IMG/VR virus record: IMGVR_UViG_2698536428_000001
Location: 1 to 21,453 of that record
DNA length: 21,453 bases
Source: a virus
Taxonomy: Duplodnaviria; Heunggongvirae; Uroviricota; Caudoviricetes
Reading direction: 5' to 3' (one strand)
Shown: positions 2,095 to 21,184 of the stretch, one piece after another
Position numbering within the stretch: position 1 is the stretch's first letter
Layout of the letters: each line of letters opens with the position of its first letter
The notes under the pieces: model-generated
What the model was told of the DNA's origin: nothing
Database searches by the model: none
Seen by the model: the letters and a program-made list of their open reading frames with translations, nothing else
Program-made: the position numbers and the translations under genes

Positions 2095-2301
2095 ATGGCT
2101 GAAGAGAAAAAAGGCGGTGTTTCGGTGTACATAAGCCCCGACATCGTGAAGGCGCTCAAGGAACGCCACCAGCAGAACGTAAAAGCAGGCATTGCGGCAG
2201 GACTTGATCCGCTGGCGATGGTTGAGCCGTCAACAGGCTGGCAGGTACGCGCCTATTTACGCGCGGCGCTGGGTATGAATCAGGTTCACGGGGGTGAATA
2301 A
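2095..2301 (+). CDS. Hypothetical protein (68 aa), first gene of the capsid-paralog operon
   Basis: ATG preceded by AAGAGGAA RBS. Stop TAA overlaps the ATG of the next gene (TAATG), suggesting translational coupling. Confidence 0.5.
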   Translation: MAEEKKGGVSVYISPDIVKALKERHQQNVKAGIAAGLDPLAMVEPSTGWQVRAYLRAALGMNQVHGGE

Positions 2302-3356
2302 TGACAGTAAAAGCAATATCACTTAACACTAACCAGCTTTTTGCGTACCTGAATCGCGAGGATATTGCGGAATTTAAATTCAGTCCGCTGTTTACCGCGC
2401 TGTTTTTCCCGAACGTGGCGACATTCAACACACAGGACATCATGTTAGATAACCTGGATATTGAAGAAGTCACTATGTCGGCGTTTTGTTCGCCTATGGT
2501 GGGTAGCCAGGTTCAGCGCGATAAAGGGTACGAAACAAGCATTATTCGCCCTGGCTACATGAAGCCAAAACACGAAATCGATCCATTAAAAACAATAATG
2601 CGCATGGCTGGAGAAGATCCGGCACAGCTTAACGACCCTACCTACCGCCGTATGCGCCTGATTACTGGCAACATGCGCCGCCAGATAAACGCCATTAAAG
2701 CGCGCGTGGAATGGCTGGCGGTAAATGCGGTAACGACCGGAAAAAACATCATTGAGGGCGAAGGCATAGAGCGCTATGAAATCGACTGGAAGATACCGGA
2801 AAAAAACATCATAGAGCAGGCCGACGGTAAAAAATGGTCAGAGCAGGACAAAGACATACACGACCCAATCTATGACATTGAGCTATACGCAGATCAGGCA
2901 GGTTGCCCCGCAAACGTCATGATTATGGGCGTTGATGTATGGCGCATGTTACGCAGCTTTAAAAAATTCCGTGAACTGTACGATCTCTCCCGTGGTTCAG
3001 AATCCGCCGCAGAGCTGGCATGTAAAAACCTGGGAGAAGTGGTGAGCTTTAAAGGCTATCTTGGTGATCTGGCCCTTATCGTCTATTCCGGCAAATACAC
3101 TGACAGCGACGGCACAGAAAAATATTTCCTTGAGCCTGATTTGCTGGTCCTGGGCAACACCAACAATAAAGGGCTGGTGGCCTATGGTGCGATTATGGAA
3201 CAGGAAGCGGTAAGAACGGGCGCAACGCAAAACATGTTTTACCCGAAAAACTGGATTGAAGACGGCGATCCGGCGATTGAGTACGTGCAGACACACAGCG
3301 CACCGCAGCCTGTTCCGGCAGATATTCGCAAATTTGTTACCGTCAAAATTGGTTAA
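2301..3356 (+). CDS. Major capsid protein, divergent paralog of lambda gpE
   Basis: 351 aa, colinear with lambda gpE (341 aa) along its whole length, with conserved blocks such as PGY(M/V)KPKHE, DP.YRR.R.I and YPKNW; roughly 35-45% identity by eye. Clearly distinct from the lambda E copy at 8427-9452. Confidence 0.8.
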   Translation: MTVKAISLNTNQLFAYLNREDIAEFKFSPLFTALFFPNVATFNTQDIMLDNLDIEEVTMSAFCSPMVGSQVQRDKGYETSIIRPGYMKPKHEIDPLKTIMRMAGEDPAQLNDPTYRRMRLITGNMRRQINAIKARVEWLAVNAVTTGKNIIEGEGIERYEIDWKIPEKNIIEQADGKKWSEQDKDIHDPIYDIELYADQAGCPANVMIMGVDVWRMLRSFKKFRELYDLSRGSESAAELACKNLGEVVSFKGYLGDLALIVYSGKYTDSDGTEKYFLEPDLLVLGNTNNKGLVAYGAIMEQEAVRTGATQNMFYPKNWIEDGDPAIEYVQTHSAPQPVPADIRKFVTVKIG

Positions 3357-3358
3357 CG

Positions 3359-3703
3359 GTGGATTCTATGAACACTCCATACATTGAGTTATTTGCAGGC
3401 AGTCAGCAGGTATCAACGACGCTGGTACATTTTGCCGCTGATGCTGGCGTTATTCAGGAATTTACCCCGCTGATGCTGGCGGACAATGGCGAGTTTAAGC
3501 CGTGGGATGGTCAGGAATCTGGCAAGGCTGTTTATCTGACCTCGTACCCCGTTGACACGTCGACGCAGAAATCAGCACAGTGCTATAAGACGGGGATATT
3601 CAATATCGCCGCCGTTAACTGGCCTGAGAGCGTCGACACCGATGCGAAAAAATGCGCCGCCTTTGCGGGTTCTGGCGTATCCGTTCAGCCGCTGGCCAGA
3701 TAA
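3359..3703 (+). CDS. Capsid decoration protein, divergent paralog of lambda gpD
   Basis: About 111-114 aa. Aligns with lambda gpD (110 aa): TPLMLADNGEFKPWDG versus [17 protein letters not shown], and C-terminal KKCAAFAGSGVSVQ versus [14 protein letters not shown]. Start is either GTG 3359 or ATG 3368; the RBS is weak for both. Confidence 0.75.
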   Translation: MDSMNTPYIELFAGSQQVSTTLVHFAADAGVIQEFTPLMLADNGEFKPWDGQESGKAVYLTSYPVDTSTQKSAQCYKTGIFNIAAVNWPESVDTDAKKCAAFAGSGVSVQPLAR

Positions 3704-3715
3704 GCAGGGGGAACG

Positions 3716-4129
3716 ATGGCAACGAATGAAAGCATCATGGCGCTACCGCTGGCGAGTAAATTTAAAGCCGAAGCGCGGGCAATGGCTGACAGAGGGTTAT
3801 CAACCTACGAGGCCGTATATCAACTCAACAAACTGGAAGAACAGGACAAGCCGCGCGCTGATGCGATTATGGCGCTTCATGAACATAACGACTATCAGCC
3901 GCTGTTACGTGCAATGGCAAACGTGCCATGTATTAGCGTCGATAATGCTCGTGAAATCCTGAACATGACCATAGAGCAGGAGCGCCCAAAGGTTGCACCA
4001 GAGCTTACCGCAGCCTTTGAAAACTTTATGGACATGCACAGCCCGCAAGCCGTATCAGCTGGCATGGCATACGATGGCAGAAACCAGGGCGATGACGGCG
4101 ACATCGATCACATACTGAAAACCATCTGA
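3716..4129 (+). CDS. Hypothetical protein (137 aa), last gene of the capsid-paralog operon
   Basis: ATG preceded by a GGGGGA RBS and followed by a strong terminator. No recognisable similarity to lambda FI/FII or other families by eye. Confidence 0.5.
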   Translation: MATNESIMALPLASKFKAEARAMADRGLSTYEAVYQLNKLEEQDKPRADAIMALHEHNDYQPLLRAMANVPCISVDNAREILNMTIEQERPKVAPELTAAFENFMDMHSPQAVSAGMAYDGRNQGDDGDIDHILKTI

Positions 4130-4135
4130 GACAAG

Positions 4136-4159
4136 GCCGGAGAAATCCGGCTTTTTTTT
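4136..4159 (+). terminator. Rho-independent terminator
   Basis: Stem GCCGGA / TCCGGC with GAAA loop followed by T8. Confidence 0.75.
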
Positions 4160-4160
4160 A

Positions 4161-4228
4161 CGGGTCCTTTCCGGCATATGGACCCGTTACGGGGCGGCGA
4201 CCTCGCGGATTTTCGCTATTTATGAGAT
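4161..4228 (+). other. Lambda-type cos segment copy 1 (cosQ-side flank, cosN, proximal cosB), rightward orientation
   Basis: Contains the lambda 12-nt cohesive-end sequence GGGCGGCGACCT (4192-4203) within GTTACGGGGCGGCGACCTCGCGGATTTTCGCTATTTATGA, nearly identical to the lambda cosN region as I recall it (…GGGCGGCGACCTCGCGGGTTTTCGCTATTTATGAAAATTTTCCGG…). Confidence 0.7.
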
Positions 4229-4241
4229 TTTTTGAGGGGGT

Positions 4242-4387
4242 GGTTGTTGTTTAATTGTTTGGTATATCTAATTGATAAGTAAGGTAAAAATAAAATAAAT
4301 ACAACAACCTTACGATGTATTTTGATGTCATTAATGTGAAAAAATTCAATGATATCAAATGGTTTTGTAAAAACACATGGTTGTTGT
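4242..4387. repeat. GGTTGTTGT repeats (two direct, one inverted) in the AT-rich core; candidate cosB R-like sites for cos copy 1
   Basis: GGTTGTTGT at 4242-4250 and 4379-4387, inverted ACAACAACC at 4300-4308. An IHF-like TATCAAATGGTTT lies near 4349-4361. Spacing from cosN is on the same scale as the lambda R3-I1-R2-R1 arrangement. Confidence 0.35.
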
Positions 4388-4563
4388 ATCGCGTATTTGA
4401 TGGCGTAACAGAAAGTGATTTTTAACTTTACCGCTCTGTAACTACGGATTATTCCATGCTGGCACGGAGAACGGCTACGGCATGACGCCACCCAGCCTAT
4501 ACAGAACAGTAAAGCCGATAAATTGTTAATCACGCGCAGCAATGCGTGTGATTTTTGCACACT

Positions 4564-4677
4564 TCCGGTTAACGGGTACGATGTCCGGTTTTAGTGTCTG
4601 TTTTTTGCGCATGTCCGGTTCATAGAAAGCATGTTTTTATATTTTTCATATGGTTAACTTGCAGAGAAACCGGACAT
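4564..4677. repeat. ATGTCCGGTT repeats (two direct, one inverted, one partial); candidate cosB R-like sites for cos copy 2
   Basis: ATGTCCGGTT at 4581-4590 and 4611-4620, inverted AACCGGACAT at 4668-4677, partial TCCGGTT at 4564-4570. They sit on the cosB side of the minus-oriented cosN, with AT-rich DNA between the inverted and direct copies. Confidence 0.4.
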
Positions 4678-4691
4678 GGATCCCGGAAAAT

Positions 4692-4759
4692 TTTCATAAA
4701 TAGTGAAAAACCGCGAGGTCGCCGCCCCGTAACGGGCCATAATTCCAGGAAGGACCCGA
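4692..4759 (-). other. Lambda-type cos segment copy 2, leftward orientation
   Basis: The reverse complement reads GGCCCGTTACGGGGCGGCGACCTCGCGGTTTTTCACTATTTATGAAAATTTTCCGG, matching the lambda left-end sequence through about 50 nt. Plus-strand cosN complement AGGTCGCCGCCC is at 4716-4727. Forms a ~68-bp imperfect inverted repeat with 4161-4228. Confidence 0.7.
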
Positions 4760-4791
4760 CGACACCAGACTATCAGAGCGATGGGGGCACA

Positions 4792-5073
4792 ATGACAGAA
4801 GCCGAAATACTGGGATTAATCCGCCGTGCTGGTGGAATCAGCCAGCAGGTTGACGAACAGGCCACGCAGCCGGACAGCGTGACAGCCGAAAATTATGCGC
4901 GTGTTGTTGCTGAGGTGATGCGCCGTGATGGTATCCAGCTTAATGGCGTGGATATGCGCAACATACGAACCAGAGTTCTTGAGTTGCTGGCCTACCGTCG
5001 CCGCGTGGAGATGTATCGGGAGAAGGAGAAAATAACGTACCACTGGAAGAAGCCGGAGCGGTTGCGGCGGTAA
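4792..5073 (+). CDS. Hypothetical protein (93 aa) adjacent to cos
   Basis: ATG at 4792 preceded by a GGGGG RBS; basic, Arg-rich C-terminus. The longer ORF from 4594 starts in AT-rich non-coding-looking DNA and is less likely. Confidence 0.45.
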   Translation: MTEAEILGLIRRAGGISQQVDEQATQPDSVTAENYARVVAEVMRRDGIQLNGVDMRNIRTRVLELLAYRRRVEMYREKEKITYHWKKPERLRR

Positions 5074-5425
5074 CTGGTTGATATTCCCGACGGCCCAAAA
5101 ATGGGTTGGCTACACCACTCACAACTACGACATTTTCGCAGTTTAATTAATGGTCAGCTTAATCGCTAACCCGCTGATATTTTCGGAAACCTCAATTTGA
5201 GGAAGTCGGCGCGGTAACTTGCTGATATTCCCGATAACGCAAAATTGCGCTGGCTGGCAGAGTGCAAATTTGCACGATGGCCTAACCCATTGATTCTTTC
5301 GAAAACCCCCATTGGGGGAGAACGGGGGAATAAACCTGACTCATTGATTCTTCCACAATCCTCAATTTGAGGAAGTCGGCGCGGTAACTCGCTGAACTTT
5401 AAGCAAAGCGCAAAATTGCGCTTGC
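5062..5425. repeat. Three imperfect direct repeats (core CGGCGCGGTAACTNGCTGA…) with embedded palindromes
   Basis: Copies at about 5064-5100, 5188-5250 and 5358-5425. The last two share about 60 bp, including CCTCAATTTGAGGAAGTCGGCGCGGTAACT and GCAAAATTGCGC. Confidence 0.6.
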
Positions 5426-5956
5426 TGAATAATCATTATGATTACGCAGATGATTAAGGAATGACCGAAGGCGGAAATTCGCCTGTGGTTAATGGGGGAG
5501 TTGCAGATCTGCAACTCGACCATGAAACTACGGAAACTACCCGTAGTTTGGGTAGTAAGAGTAACACCCAGATTTTGGGGCTTACTCGTGATACCCAAAT
5601 TTGGGGTATCGGTGGCAACCATAACGACTTTCGTTACGGTTGATGCTTTTACCCCATTGGGGGAAAGGTATTACGATAATCATAACACCTACCGAACAGG
5701 TAAAGCCCACCAGCCTGATTAACGTTTAACCGGAAAAAAATTCCGGTAGGTGGGGATCCCTATATCGACATTAACGCCCACTAAAACTGTGCATATATGC
5801 ATAGAAAAAGCATCCACCAGCTTTATGACGGATGCCGCTCATCTTATAAATAATCGTGTATTGCAGTGTGTATTGCGACTCCTTTAAACGATAGGTCTGA
5901 GCATTCGTAATGTACTGTTTTTAAATTTTATTTTTTCCTGTCTTTTCATAAAAGCC

Positions 5957-6730
5957 ATGTATGCCGCCACCATTGAAAGTGAGCTGGATACGCAGTCAGC
6001 GATGGATTTTATTCTGGGCGCGAACAGTCAGGAGCAGCGGGAAAGGCTGACGGGCTGGATTGGTGAAATTGCCGCGTATTACGCCGCAGCACCGGTCCGT
6101 CTGGGAGGCGCAAAAGTGCCGCACCTGATGCCGGGGGACTCACTGAACCTGCAGACGGCTCAGGACACGGATAACGGCTACTCCGTGTTTGAGCAGTCAC
6201 TGTTGCGGTATATCGCTGCCGGGCTGGGTGTCTCGTATGAGCAGCTTTCCCGGAATTACGCCCAGATGAGCTACTCCACGGCACGGGCCAGTGCGAACGA
6301 GTCGTGGGCGTACTTTATGGGGCGGCGAAAATTCGTCGCATCCCGTCAGGCGAGCCAGATGTTTCTGTGCTGGCTGGAAGAGGCCATCGCTCGCCGCGTG
6401 GTGACGTTACCTTCAAAAGCGCGCTTCAGTTTTCAGGAAGCCCGAAGTGCCTGGGGGAACTGCGACTGGATAGGCTCCGGTCGTATGGCCATCGATGGTC
6501 TGAAAGAAGTACAGGAAGCGGTGATGCTGATAGAAGCCGGACTGAGTACCTACGAGAAAGAGTGCGCAAAACGCGGTGACGACTATCAGGAAGTTTTTGC
6601 CCAGCAGGTCCGTGAAACGATGGAGCGCCGTGCAGCCGGTCTTAAACCGCCCGCCTGGGCGGCTGCGGCATTTGAATCCGGGCTGCGACAATCAACAGAG
6701 GAGGAGAAGAGTGACAGCAGAGCTGCGTAA
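5957..6730 (+). pseudogene. B: Portal protein gene B, 3' fragment (about C-terminal 257 of 533 codons)
   Basis: Translation matches the C-terminal half of lambda gpB as I recall it, and the 3' end overlaps the C start by 20 nt as in lambda. Sequence immediately upstream (5760-5955) is AT-rich and unlike lambda B coding DNA, so the lambda homology appears to begin near 5955. Confidence 0.7.
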
Positions 6731-8029
6731 TCTCCCGCATATTGCCAGTATGGCCTTTAATGAGCCGCTGATGCTTGAACCCGCCTATGCGCGGGTTTTC
6801 TTTTGTGCGCTTGCAGGCCAGCTTGGGATCAGCCGCCTGACGGATGCGGTATCCGGCGACAGCCTGACTGCCGGAGAGGCACCCGCGGCGCTGGCGTTAT
6901 CCGTTGATGATGACGGACCACGACAGGCCCGCAGTTATCAGGTCATGAACGGCATCGCCGTGCTGCCGGTGTCCGGCACGCTGGTCAGTCGGACGCGGGC
7001 GCTGCAGCCGTATTCGGGGATGACCGGTTACAACGGCATTATCGCCCGTCTGCAACAGGCTGCCAGCGACCCGATGGTGGACGGCATTCTGCTCGATATG
7101 GATACGCCAGGCGGGATGGTGGCAGGGGCATTTGACTGCGCTGACATCATCGCCCGTGTGCGTGACATAAAGCCGGTATGGGCGCTGGCAAGCAACTGAA
7201 CTGCAGTGCAGGTCAGTTGCTTGCCAGCGCCGCCTCCCGACGTCTGGTCACGCAGACCGCCCGGACAGGCTCCATCGGCGTCATGATGGCTCACAGTAAT
7301 TACGGTGCTGCGCTGGAGAAACAGGGCGTGGAAATCACGCTGATTTACAGCGGCAGCCATAAGGTGGATGGCAACCCCTACAGCCATCTACCGGATGATG
7401 TCCGGGAAACACTGCAGTCCCGGATGGATGCAACCCGCCGGATGTTTGCACAGAAGGTGTCGGCATATACCGGCCTGTCCGTGCAGGCTGTGCTGGATAC
7501 CGAGGCTGCAGTGTACAGCGGTCAGGAGGCCATTGATGCCGGACTGGCTGATGAACTTGTTAACAGTACCGATGCGATCACCGTCATGCGTGATGCACTG
7601 GATGCACGTAAATCCCGTCTCTCAGGAGGGCGAATGACCAAAGAGACTCAATCAACAACTGTTTCAGCCACTGCTTCGCAGGCTGACGTTACTGGCGTGG
7701 TGCAAGCGACGGAGGGCGAGAACGCCAGCGCTGCGCAGCCGGACGTGAACGCGCAGATCACCGCAGCGGTTGCGGCAGAAAACAGTCGCATTATGGGGAT
7801 CCTCAACTGTGAGGAGGCTCACGGACGCGAAGAACAGGCACGCGTGCTGGCCGAAACCCCCGGTATGACCGTGGAAACGGCCCGCCGCATTCTGGCAGTT
7901 GCACCACAGAGTGCACAGGCGCGCAGTGACACTGCGCTGGATCGTCTGATGCAGGGGGCACCGGCACCGCTGGCTGCAGGTAACCCGGCATCTGATGCCG
8001 TTAACGATTTGCTGAACACACCAGTGTAA
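6711..8029 (+). pseudogene. C: Head protease/scaffold gene C, disrupted by a frameshift near 7180-7199
   Basis: GTG start at 6711 gives MTAELRNLPHIASMAFNEPLML… (lambda gpC). The reading frame ends at TGA 7197-7199 (…KPVWALASN*) and gpC sequence continues in another frame from 7178 (…QLNCSAGQLLASAASRRL…). The span is 1319 nt, not a multiple of 3; lambda C is one ORF of 1320 nt as I recall. Confidence 0.7.
7424..8029 (+). CDS. nu3: Scaffolding protein Nu3 (in-frame internal start within the 3' part of C)
   Basis: ATG at 7424 (MDATRRMFAQKVSAYTGLS…), 201 aa, ending at the C stop as in lambda. Lies downstream of the C frameshift, so it is intact. Confidence 0.75.
   Translation: MDATRRMFAQKVSAYTGLSVQAVLDTEAAVYSGQEAIDAGLADELVNSTDAITVMRDALDARKSRLSGGRMTKETQSTTVSATASQADVTGVVQATEGENASAAQPDVNAQITAAVAAENSRIMGILNCEEAHGREEQARVLAETPGMTVETARRILAVAPQSAQARSDTALDRLMQGAPAPLAAGNPASDAVNDLLNTPV

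Positions 8030-17782: not shown

Positions 17783-21184
<3,402 letters not shown>

Follow-up and report, generated by a model that had tools for sequence, protein, structure and literature searches.

The DNA analyzed here, a Caudoviricetes record of 21,453 nucleotides (IMG/VR record IMGVR_UViG_2698536428_000001, positions 1 to 21,453; "the window" denotes this whole stretch), carries between positions 4,161 and 4,759 two lambda-type cos sites that face each other head-to-head. The sites lie at the late end of a phage-inducible chromosomal island (PICI) of the EcCICFT073 family, which accounts for window positions 1 to ~5960 and is inserted into the portal gene of a lambdoid prophage. In the packaging model proposed here, to which we assign a probability of about 0.7, an EcCICFT073-family island with two phage-derived, head-to-head cos sites would be packaged directly by helper terminases of two different specificities, with the site termed copy 1 recognized through a cosB of the N15/Monarch type, and the site termed copy 2 through a cosB of a second type, designated here as the B-type.

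The two sites form an inverted repeat of 72 nt, the arms of which (coordinates in Table 1) are 85% complementary, mismatch at 11 positions and are separated by 454 nt. Both arms contain the lambda 12-mer GGGCGGCGACCT, identical to lambda bases 1-12, which occurs only these two times in the window, once on each strand, and in 0 of 100 shuffles of the window. The ~68-bp inverted cos segments around an AT-rich core, as described in the initial annotation, are thus real, with coordinates that agree to within 5 nt and a core (4233-4686) of 38.5% G+C versus 54.7% for the window as a whole. The similarity to lambda, aligned as the joined ends of NC_001416, extends into the flanks of the 12-mer: copy 1 is 93% and copy 2 95% identical between cosN and +40, the cosQ sides are 76% (copy 1) and 64% (copy 2) identical, and both copies have a cosQ motif, GGGTCCT, ~30 nt ahead of cosN and oriented like it, while the cosB regions of both drop to the background identity of ~58%.

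The different triplet of short repeats that had been noticed inside each cosN is also borne out. The motif GGTTGTTGT occurs three times, at 4242 (+), 4301 (-) and 4379 (+), confined to the inner flank of copy 1 (expected 0.17 per window), and ATGTCCGGTT likewise three times, at 4581 (+), 4611 (+) and 4668 (-), confined to the inner flank of copy 2 (expected 0.04 per window). Counted zero-based from cosN base 1, the R-box offsets are 50/109/187 in copy 1 and 50/107/137 in copy 2, as against 48/108/150 in lambda; the suggested likeness to the lambda R3-I1-R2-R1 layout with non-lambda boxes stands as far as the R boxes are concerned; no I1 is claimed for either copy, because inspection by eye between R3 and R2 revealed no perfect consensus for integration host factor (IHF). 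Both copies therefore share with lambda cos the 12-mer, cosQ, a cosN region identical at 93-95% up to +40, and an R3 at ~+50 and R2 at ~+108, whereas their R boxes are unrelated to the lambda CGTTTCC, the R1 of copy 2 is oriented like R2, and there are two facing sites in place of one. A comparison of 53 distinct sequences of the copy-1 type and 67 of the copy-2 type places the conserved columns in cosQ and cosN, in the spacer and in the R boxes, with cosQ among the most conserved.

Copy 1 is assigned, by sequence comparison, to the Monarch-type cos sites with a predicted N15/Monarch packaging specificity, because its R3, its box layout and the N-terminal domain of the Nu1 linked to it in phages all match N15/Monarch. 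R3-N15 has been defined via mutagenesis, and the Monarch-type prophages were described to have a three-box cosB and the same specificity (Feiss et al. 2015, Virology 482:260 and PLoS One 10:e0141934; PMC4669245). The R3 of copy 1 (bp 49-64) reads GTGGTTGTTGTTTAAT and R3-N15 reads GAGGTTGTTGTTTAAT, at an equal distance from the cohesive end, and copy 1 conforms to the sequence GAGGTTGTTGTT, which characterizes the N15 R3 at bp 48-59 from the cohesive end. A motif scan of IMG/VR for GGTTGTTGT behind a cosN returned 88 sites, ~60 of which are phage cos sites with boxes at +50, +109 and +187 (or +175), followed by a Nu1 gene starting at +230 or +241; a blastn search of INPHARED did not find the copy-1 cosB. 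The N-terminal domains of Nu1 from these contigs are 93-100% identical to each other and their C-terminal parts 64-72%, and the N-terminal domain matches that of N15 gp1 at 32 of 36 aligned residues. Copy 1 itself is ~97% identical, from cosQ through R1, to the cos of a prophage contig (L010) in which the Nu1 gene follows, and this identity stops a few bases past R1. What sets copy 1 apart from the N15/Monarch sites is that it resides in a satellite devoid of its own terS and that its cosN is the lambda 12-mer and not the N15 variant. No TerS with an N15-type winged helix-turn-helix is encoded in the window, and the co-occurrence of this cosB with its TerS is that seen in the ~60 phage contigs.

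Copy 2 is 92.7% identical to the cos2 region of CFT073 and matches the published cos2 sequence. It is, at the same time, ~98% identical from cosN through R1 to the cos of phage PhiR12_1, located just upstream of the PhiR12_1 Nu1 gene, with the identity again ending right past R1. Scanning IMG/VR with ATGTCCGGTT gave more than 119 stretches, and at 104 of 123 sites the boxes are followed by a 169-aa Nu1 at ~+196. In its N-terminal domain, this Nu1 shares 10-13% identity with the N15 type and 15% with the lambda domain, and shows no evident similarity to the phage 21 domain in alignment; in its C-terminal part, the identity to the copy-1-type Nu1 reaches up to 77% (50-77% among the C-terminal parts compared). 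The boxes of copy 2 do resemble those of phage 21 (ATGTCGG versus ATGTCCGG), but because the TerS domain differs despite this similarity, the B-type is kept apart from phage 21 and is treated as a separate, putative specificity, a second one that is common among E. coli prophages. Helper matching of the island cos is supported by one composite (L222), in which the cos of the embedding helper is itself of the B-type and 97.8% identical to copy 2 of the island.

The layout of two cos sites with conserved cosN/cosQ and divergent cosB was already published in 2018-19. EcCICFT073 contains two cos sites that both support phage-mediated transfer, which is abolished by their double deletion (Fillol-Salom et al. 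2018, ISME J, PMC6092414); cos1 is needed for the transfer by lambda and phi80 (PMC6092414), and RppA (c1503), by binding to the TerS of the phage, diverts it to the cosB of cos1 (Fillol-Salom et al. 2019, Mol Cell, PMC6739421). A lambda-type cos function, i.e. cutting by the terminase and packaging, is on record for CFT073 cos1 and for the homologue of copy 2 (PMC6092414, PMC6739421). The printed sequences of cos1 and cos2 (Figure S1A) map to opposite strands of CFT073, cos1 upstream of rppA (+) and cos2 downstream of it (-), and the head-to-head pair is thus implicit in the published data; the word "inverted" is used in neither paper (PMC6092414, PMC6739421). The view expressed in the initial annotation, that a pair of this kind is not known from described satellites, can accordingly not be maintained. 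Neither of the two papers assigns cos2 to a phage specificity, the review of Murialdo and Feiss covers cos1 only, and the authors of PMC6739421 asked why some islands hold two different cos sites. The literature searched contained no assignment of the sites to phage specificities, no variant lacking rpp and no inversion at cosN.

The comparison with EcCICFT073, which the initial annotation had itself proposed, identifies copy 2 as cos2 with shared ATGTCCGGTT boxes, and copy 1 as a site that agrees with cos1 in the cosQ-cosN arm and departs from it in the inner flank. The two late-region cos sites of the EcCICFT073-type packaging module are present in the window, and the likeness further includes the family of the island, the position of the pair (after the genes for capsid-like, decoration-like and 137-aa proteins and before that for a 93-aa protein) and the facing cosQ-cosN arms. 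The difference lies between the sites, where CFT073 holds rppA (identified through a match to RppC in the PDB, 5e-31) and a GGTGACACCACCACC cosB at cos1, whereas the window holds a remnant of the gene and the tripartite Monarch-type cosB. The CFT073 island (L002) aligns to the window at 92% until 4232 and then again from 4493; the inner flank of copy 1 past that first point is of the N15/Monarch type, and the Rpp-dependent cosB (R3-PICI, GGTGACACCACCACC) is absent. The remnant, an inverted piece of the rppA 3' end, is joined at ~4497 to the tail that follows rppA in CFT073, with the string CAGCC shared at the joint, and tblastn detected no other Rpp-like match in the window. Of the two means by which the initial annotation had envisaged a choice between the sites, a redirecting factor is therefore not encoded here, rppA being reduced to a remnant, and different small-subunit specificities fit, as each cosB type is found in phages ahead of a Nu1 with an N-terminal domain of its own.

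In the model proposed here, the DNA-binding domain of the helper Nu1 would fit one of the two cosB, allowing the terminase to assemble there, following which the gpA-type large subunit would nick the common lambda-type cosN and the replicated island would be packaged away from the chosen site to the next co-oriented cosQ-cosN of the concatemer. An N15/Monarch helper would start at copy 1 and a B-type helper at copy 2, resulting in opposite directions of packaging. Since RppA and its cosB, which serve the lambda/phi80-type helpers in EcCICFT073, have been lost, the variant would depend on direct recognition. The inverted layout would let two functional cos sites coexist by preventing terminase-mediated deletion: termination requires cosQ and cosN and is directional (PMC9026076), and two cos sites of like orientation delimit DNA that is packaged as one unit (PMC4669245), so that under the lambda termination rules a pair in direct orientation would be expected to lose or duplicate the inter-cos DNA, with the inverted pair remaining stable. 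With no gene in the core, its flipping would be neutral.

This model offers an answer to the question raised in PMC6739421, in that the second site (here both sites) would be a native cos belonging to a different lambdoid packaging specificity. Several classes of helpers could then mobilize one and the same satellite, Rpp being needed only for those of the lambda/phi80 type, and N15/Monarch-specific and PhiR12-type phages would be predicted to mobilize such islands, which in some strains carry virulence genes.

The element that carries the pair has the gene order primase C-terminus, SSB, PerC-like, capsid, decoration, 137-aa protein, cos pair, 93-aa protein. The capsid protein gene (2301-3356) is lambda E-like (PF03864, 4e-49) and the decoration protein gene (3359-3703) is D-like; EcCICFT073 was described in 2018 as being without capsid morphogenesis genes (PMC6092414). 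The island sits inside a late gene of the prophage, in the same orientation, and the open reading frame (ORF) at 5957-6730 codes for the C-terminal portion of a portal protein of the lambda family (Pfam Phage_portal_2 positions 238-354); the right attachment site was placed by aligning the window with the composite L226 and with RM8385, in which the portal gene is intact, and both cos copies lie ~1.2 kb inside the island from this end. The window shows only the right junction of the helper-embedded PICI. The left junction is visible in L226 (GCA_003778705.2), which is 99.86% identical to the window in the left flank and 99.95% in the right flank, and in strain L26 (L005) the layout reads Nu1-A-W-portal N-terminus, island, portal C-terminus-C-D-E...J. 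Several draft genomes have the same island type at the same portal location; among complete E. coli genomes no record spans the PICI-portal junction, and contigs with the truncated portal protein end just upstream of that gene. With the helper-embedded PICIs of Tommasini, Mageeney and Williams (2023, NAR Genom Bioinform, PMC10111431) the island has in common the embedded configuration and the captured capsid- and decoration-like genes; it differs in its double cos site, as none was analyzed there.

The 536-bp DNA between the two cosN is found in both orientations in near-identical islands. Among 25 rpp-less pairs of the window type, the Monarch-type copy lies beside the 137-aa gene in 8, as it does in the window, and the B-type copy lies there in 17, and in all cases the cosQ halves stay fixed to the flanking genes while the cosB halves move with the core. 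The cosQ half of the left arm, which is identical to the cos1 arm of EcCICFT073, always adjoins the 137-aa gene, and that of the right arm always adjoins the 93-aa gene. The switch points must therefore lie within the 26-bp CCCGTTACG-GGGCGGCGACCT-CGCGG, the sole long stretch that is identical in the two arms. Both orientations are seen at the clpS site (L001 versus L213-L215) and at the yejO site (L211 versus L003), and L226 represents the embedded composite of the window with a reversed core; flipped islands share the left flank of the window at 99.9% identity, and the core of the window carries the two single-nucleotide alleles of the flipped group. These relationships argue for more than one recent inversion event, and a single-event history was rejected, as orientation tracks neither flank nor core relatedness. 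The pairs that contain rpp are found in one orientation in 16 of 16 cases (Fisher p = 0.014, for samples that are not independent), which is what would be expected if flipping were tolerated only without a gene in the core.

Two routes to the inversion can be envisaged. Short-homology recombination could take place inside the 26-bp identical block containing cosN, or the terminase could cut both cosN, upon which the core with its two identical cohesive overhangs would re-anneal either way, and the position of the breakpoints would fit both. No recombinase gene that could act as an invertase (of the Hin/Gin or FimB/E type) is present in or beside the cassette, the only recombinase being the island integrase, located ~10 kb away in L226. 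It is tempting to speculate, though we consider this rather improbable, that the inter-cosN DNA constitutes a terminase-bounded cassette which either flips or is exchanged for the core of a co-resident island. If this were true, packaging specificities could be flipped and shuffled among satellites without a recombinase. Cores found so far between the same two cosQ arms comprise those with Rpp-type, PICI-TerS-type, N15/Monarch-type, B-type and 21-type cosB. Natural pairs flipped at cosN offer a simple system to ask whether terminase cuts drive rearrangement.

Several observations weigh against dual-specificity packaging. The packaging role of this variant, and that of an N15/Monarch-type copy residing in an island, is read from sequence comparisons, as is the definition of the putative B-type specificity, and the stability advantage of the inverted layout is likewise a deduction. 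The helper in which the island is embedded is probably of the lambda type, which would match neither cos: it has a 181-aa Nu1 with a C-terminus identical to that of lambda-type Nu1 (in a 99.8%-identical relative) and a cos geometry of -3864 from int, the cos type being deduced in this way as L226 ends ~430 nt short of the start of the helper Nu1. Lambda terminase suffers a ~5000-fold penalty on an N15-type cosB (PMC4669245), so the embedding prophage is probably not the packaging helper; its protease gene is, in addition, frameshifted. The packaging helper of the window island is then likely a different phage, either resident or incoming. Finally, cos2 of EcCICFT073 was reported to be dispensable, and even slightly harmful, for the transfer by lambda and phi80 (PMC6092414), a result which fits the dual-specificity model and also fits a site that is a useless relic. 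That latter explanation, in which one cos works and the other is a decaying relic, without a role in packaging, that was left by the rpp deletion or by some previous capture, could also draw on the probable mismatch of the lambda-type helper to both sites and on the decay seen elsewhere in the variant, i.e. the rpp remnant. We nevertheless regard it as unlikely, in view of the full cosQ-to-R1 unit retained in both copies at ~97-98% identity to phage cos, with the identity ending exactly at the edges of the unit, of the intact R boxes at canonical offsets, and of the presence of the rpp-less pair at at least four integration sites with 98-100% identity of the core.

Other readings of the pair fare less well. 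Selection could have favored the flipping itself, making the core a functional invertible switch that sets which specificity packages in which direction, for instance by bringing one island cos into co-orientation with the helper cos in embedded islands, or by allowing in-situ packaging of neighboring DNA. Both orientations are indeed common and recent, and the five flipped portal-embedded composites have the B-type copy co-oriented with the helper cos; however, the lack of an invertase gene nearby, the predicted neutrality of orientation once the island is circular or concatemeric, and the fixed orientation of the rpp-containing pairs, as if flipping were merely tolerated where the core has no gene, make such a switch doubtful, and the samples are few and not independent. 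The contexts in which the pair occurs refute the reading that it marks the junction of two elements, with copy 2 serving the satellite and copy 1 serving the lambda structural genes, as the initial annotation had implied in describing copy 1 as directed rightward into structural genes that lack their own terminase. The direction of copy 1 is as described, and no terminase is found beside these genes, but copy 1 does not serve them: both copies lie inside the satellite, with the 93-aa gene and attR (~5951-5963) to their right, the same pair is present in islands at clpS, yejO and phoQ without an adjacent prophage, and the terminase of the prophage (Nu1, A and W, with the portal N-terminus) is found to the left of the island, on its far side, in L226, L222 and L005. 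The terminase thus only seems to be missing, because the island splits the portal gene and both cos sites are in the island. That the inverted duplication is spurious, given that inverted repeats can mislead assemblers, has a negligible probability, as the arms are only 72 nt long with 11 differences, the pair has been verified experimentally in CFT073 (PMC6092414), and it recurs in at least 25 independent assemblies, which include complete RefSeq and draft genomes, IMG/VR contigs and a metagenome.

Variant pairs are found in other islands. In L006, L007 and eight IMG/VR contigs, cos1 and rpp are kept and a Monarch-type cos occupies the position of cos2. A portal-embedded island from IMG/VR (L250) has at 19766-20730 a head-to-head pair in which an inverted phage-21-type cos is combined with a further cosB type; the island has its own 180-aa TerS, the DNA-binding domain of which belongs to the N15 family, and its cosQ arms are the same two as those of the window. 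The cos2 position, therefore, holds a B-type, N15/Monarch-type or 21-type cosB, depending on the island. A related pair in IMG/VR (L074) has a 637-bp core and a larger rpp remnant (codons ~78-128), suggesting that the decay of rpp was stepwise or occurred independently. Variants of cosN are seen in strain GF4 (L212), where the pair combines GGGCGTCGACCT in one copy with GGGCGTGGAACC in its partner, and in strain Ch1 (L006), in which GGGCGTCGACCT is present in both arms, which suggests homogenization between the arms. As to the portal-embedded islands in general, the idea that they share the cosB of their helper was rejected, as most of those with the integrase of the window island are located in lambda-type helpers and have another cos type, consisting of a single, different cos together with their own TerS.

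Table 1. Features of the cos pair and its surroundings, in window coordinates.
Feature	Positions	Strand	Description
hyp414, 137 aa	3716..4129	+	last late-operon gene before the cos pair; phrog_1999 at 1e-63
intrinsic-terminator-like hairpin and T run	4133..4160	+	ends the late operon, directly before copy 1
left arm of repeat	4161..4232	+	cosQ side (GGGTCCT 4163-4169), cosN 12-mer 4192-4203, I2-like spacer of copy 1
copy 1, cosN to R1	4192..4391	+	predicted N15/Monarch-type cosB; R3 GGTTGTTGT 4242-4250, R2 inverted 4301-4309, R1 4379-4387
cosN-to-cosN core, 536 bp	4192..4727	.	found in either orientation among related islands
rppA 3'-end remnant, inverted, 72 nt	4426..4497	-	codons ~123-144; tblastn and blastn against CFT073 rppA
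terminator-like hairpin	4531..4548	+	3' of rppA in CFT073, kept here; based on alignment to L002 from 20608 onward
copy 2, cosN to R1	4581..4727	-	published EcCICFT073 cos2, putative B-type cosB; R3 4677-4668, R2 4620-4611, R1 4590-4581, 12-mer 4727-4716
right arm of repeat	4687..4758	-	spacer, cosN and cosQ side of copy 2 (GGGTCCT 4757-4751)
hyp282, 93 aa	4792..5073	+	downstream of the cos pair; phrog_1561 at 2e-56; same place in all related islands
attR core, right end of satellite	5951..5963	+	portal gene resumes at 5951 = portal nt 823; 13-nt overlap

The two small proteins that border the pair have no match in Pfam and belong, in PHROGs, only to families of unknown function. The 137-aa protein, for which no relative was found in the PDB, weakly matches the C-terminal portion of a phrog of head maturation proteases and is conserved at the same place in CFT073 and other EcCICFT073-type islands. 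Neither an Rfam match (window 3500-6200) nor promoter-like sites (window 3900-5100) were found around the pair. An ORF of 36 aa at 4315-4425 lies inside the cosB of copy 1; it has no family match, the corresponding sequence is non-coding cosB in phages, and it is probably spurious.

The protease/scaffold gene of the prophage, the equivalent of lambda C, is present as two overlapping ORFs (6576-7199 and 7178-8029) with an apparent frameshift, and the embedding prophage may thus be defective; the gene is split also in the Logan contigs L216 and L219 and is intact, encoding 439 aa, in L217. Near the right end of the island there is a direct repeat of ~60 nt in three copies that are 60-82% identical (5166-5225, 5282-5341 and 5336-5395), with shorter related repeats at 5067-5111 and 5211-5255, and these repeats may represent arm sites of the integrase.

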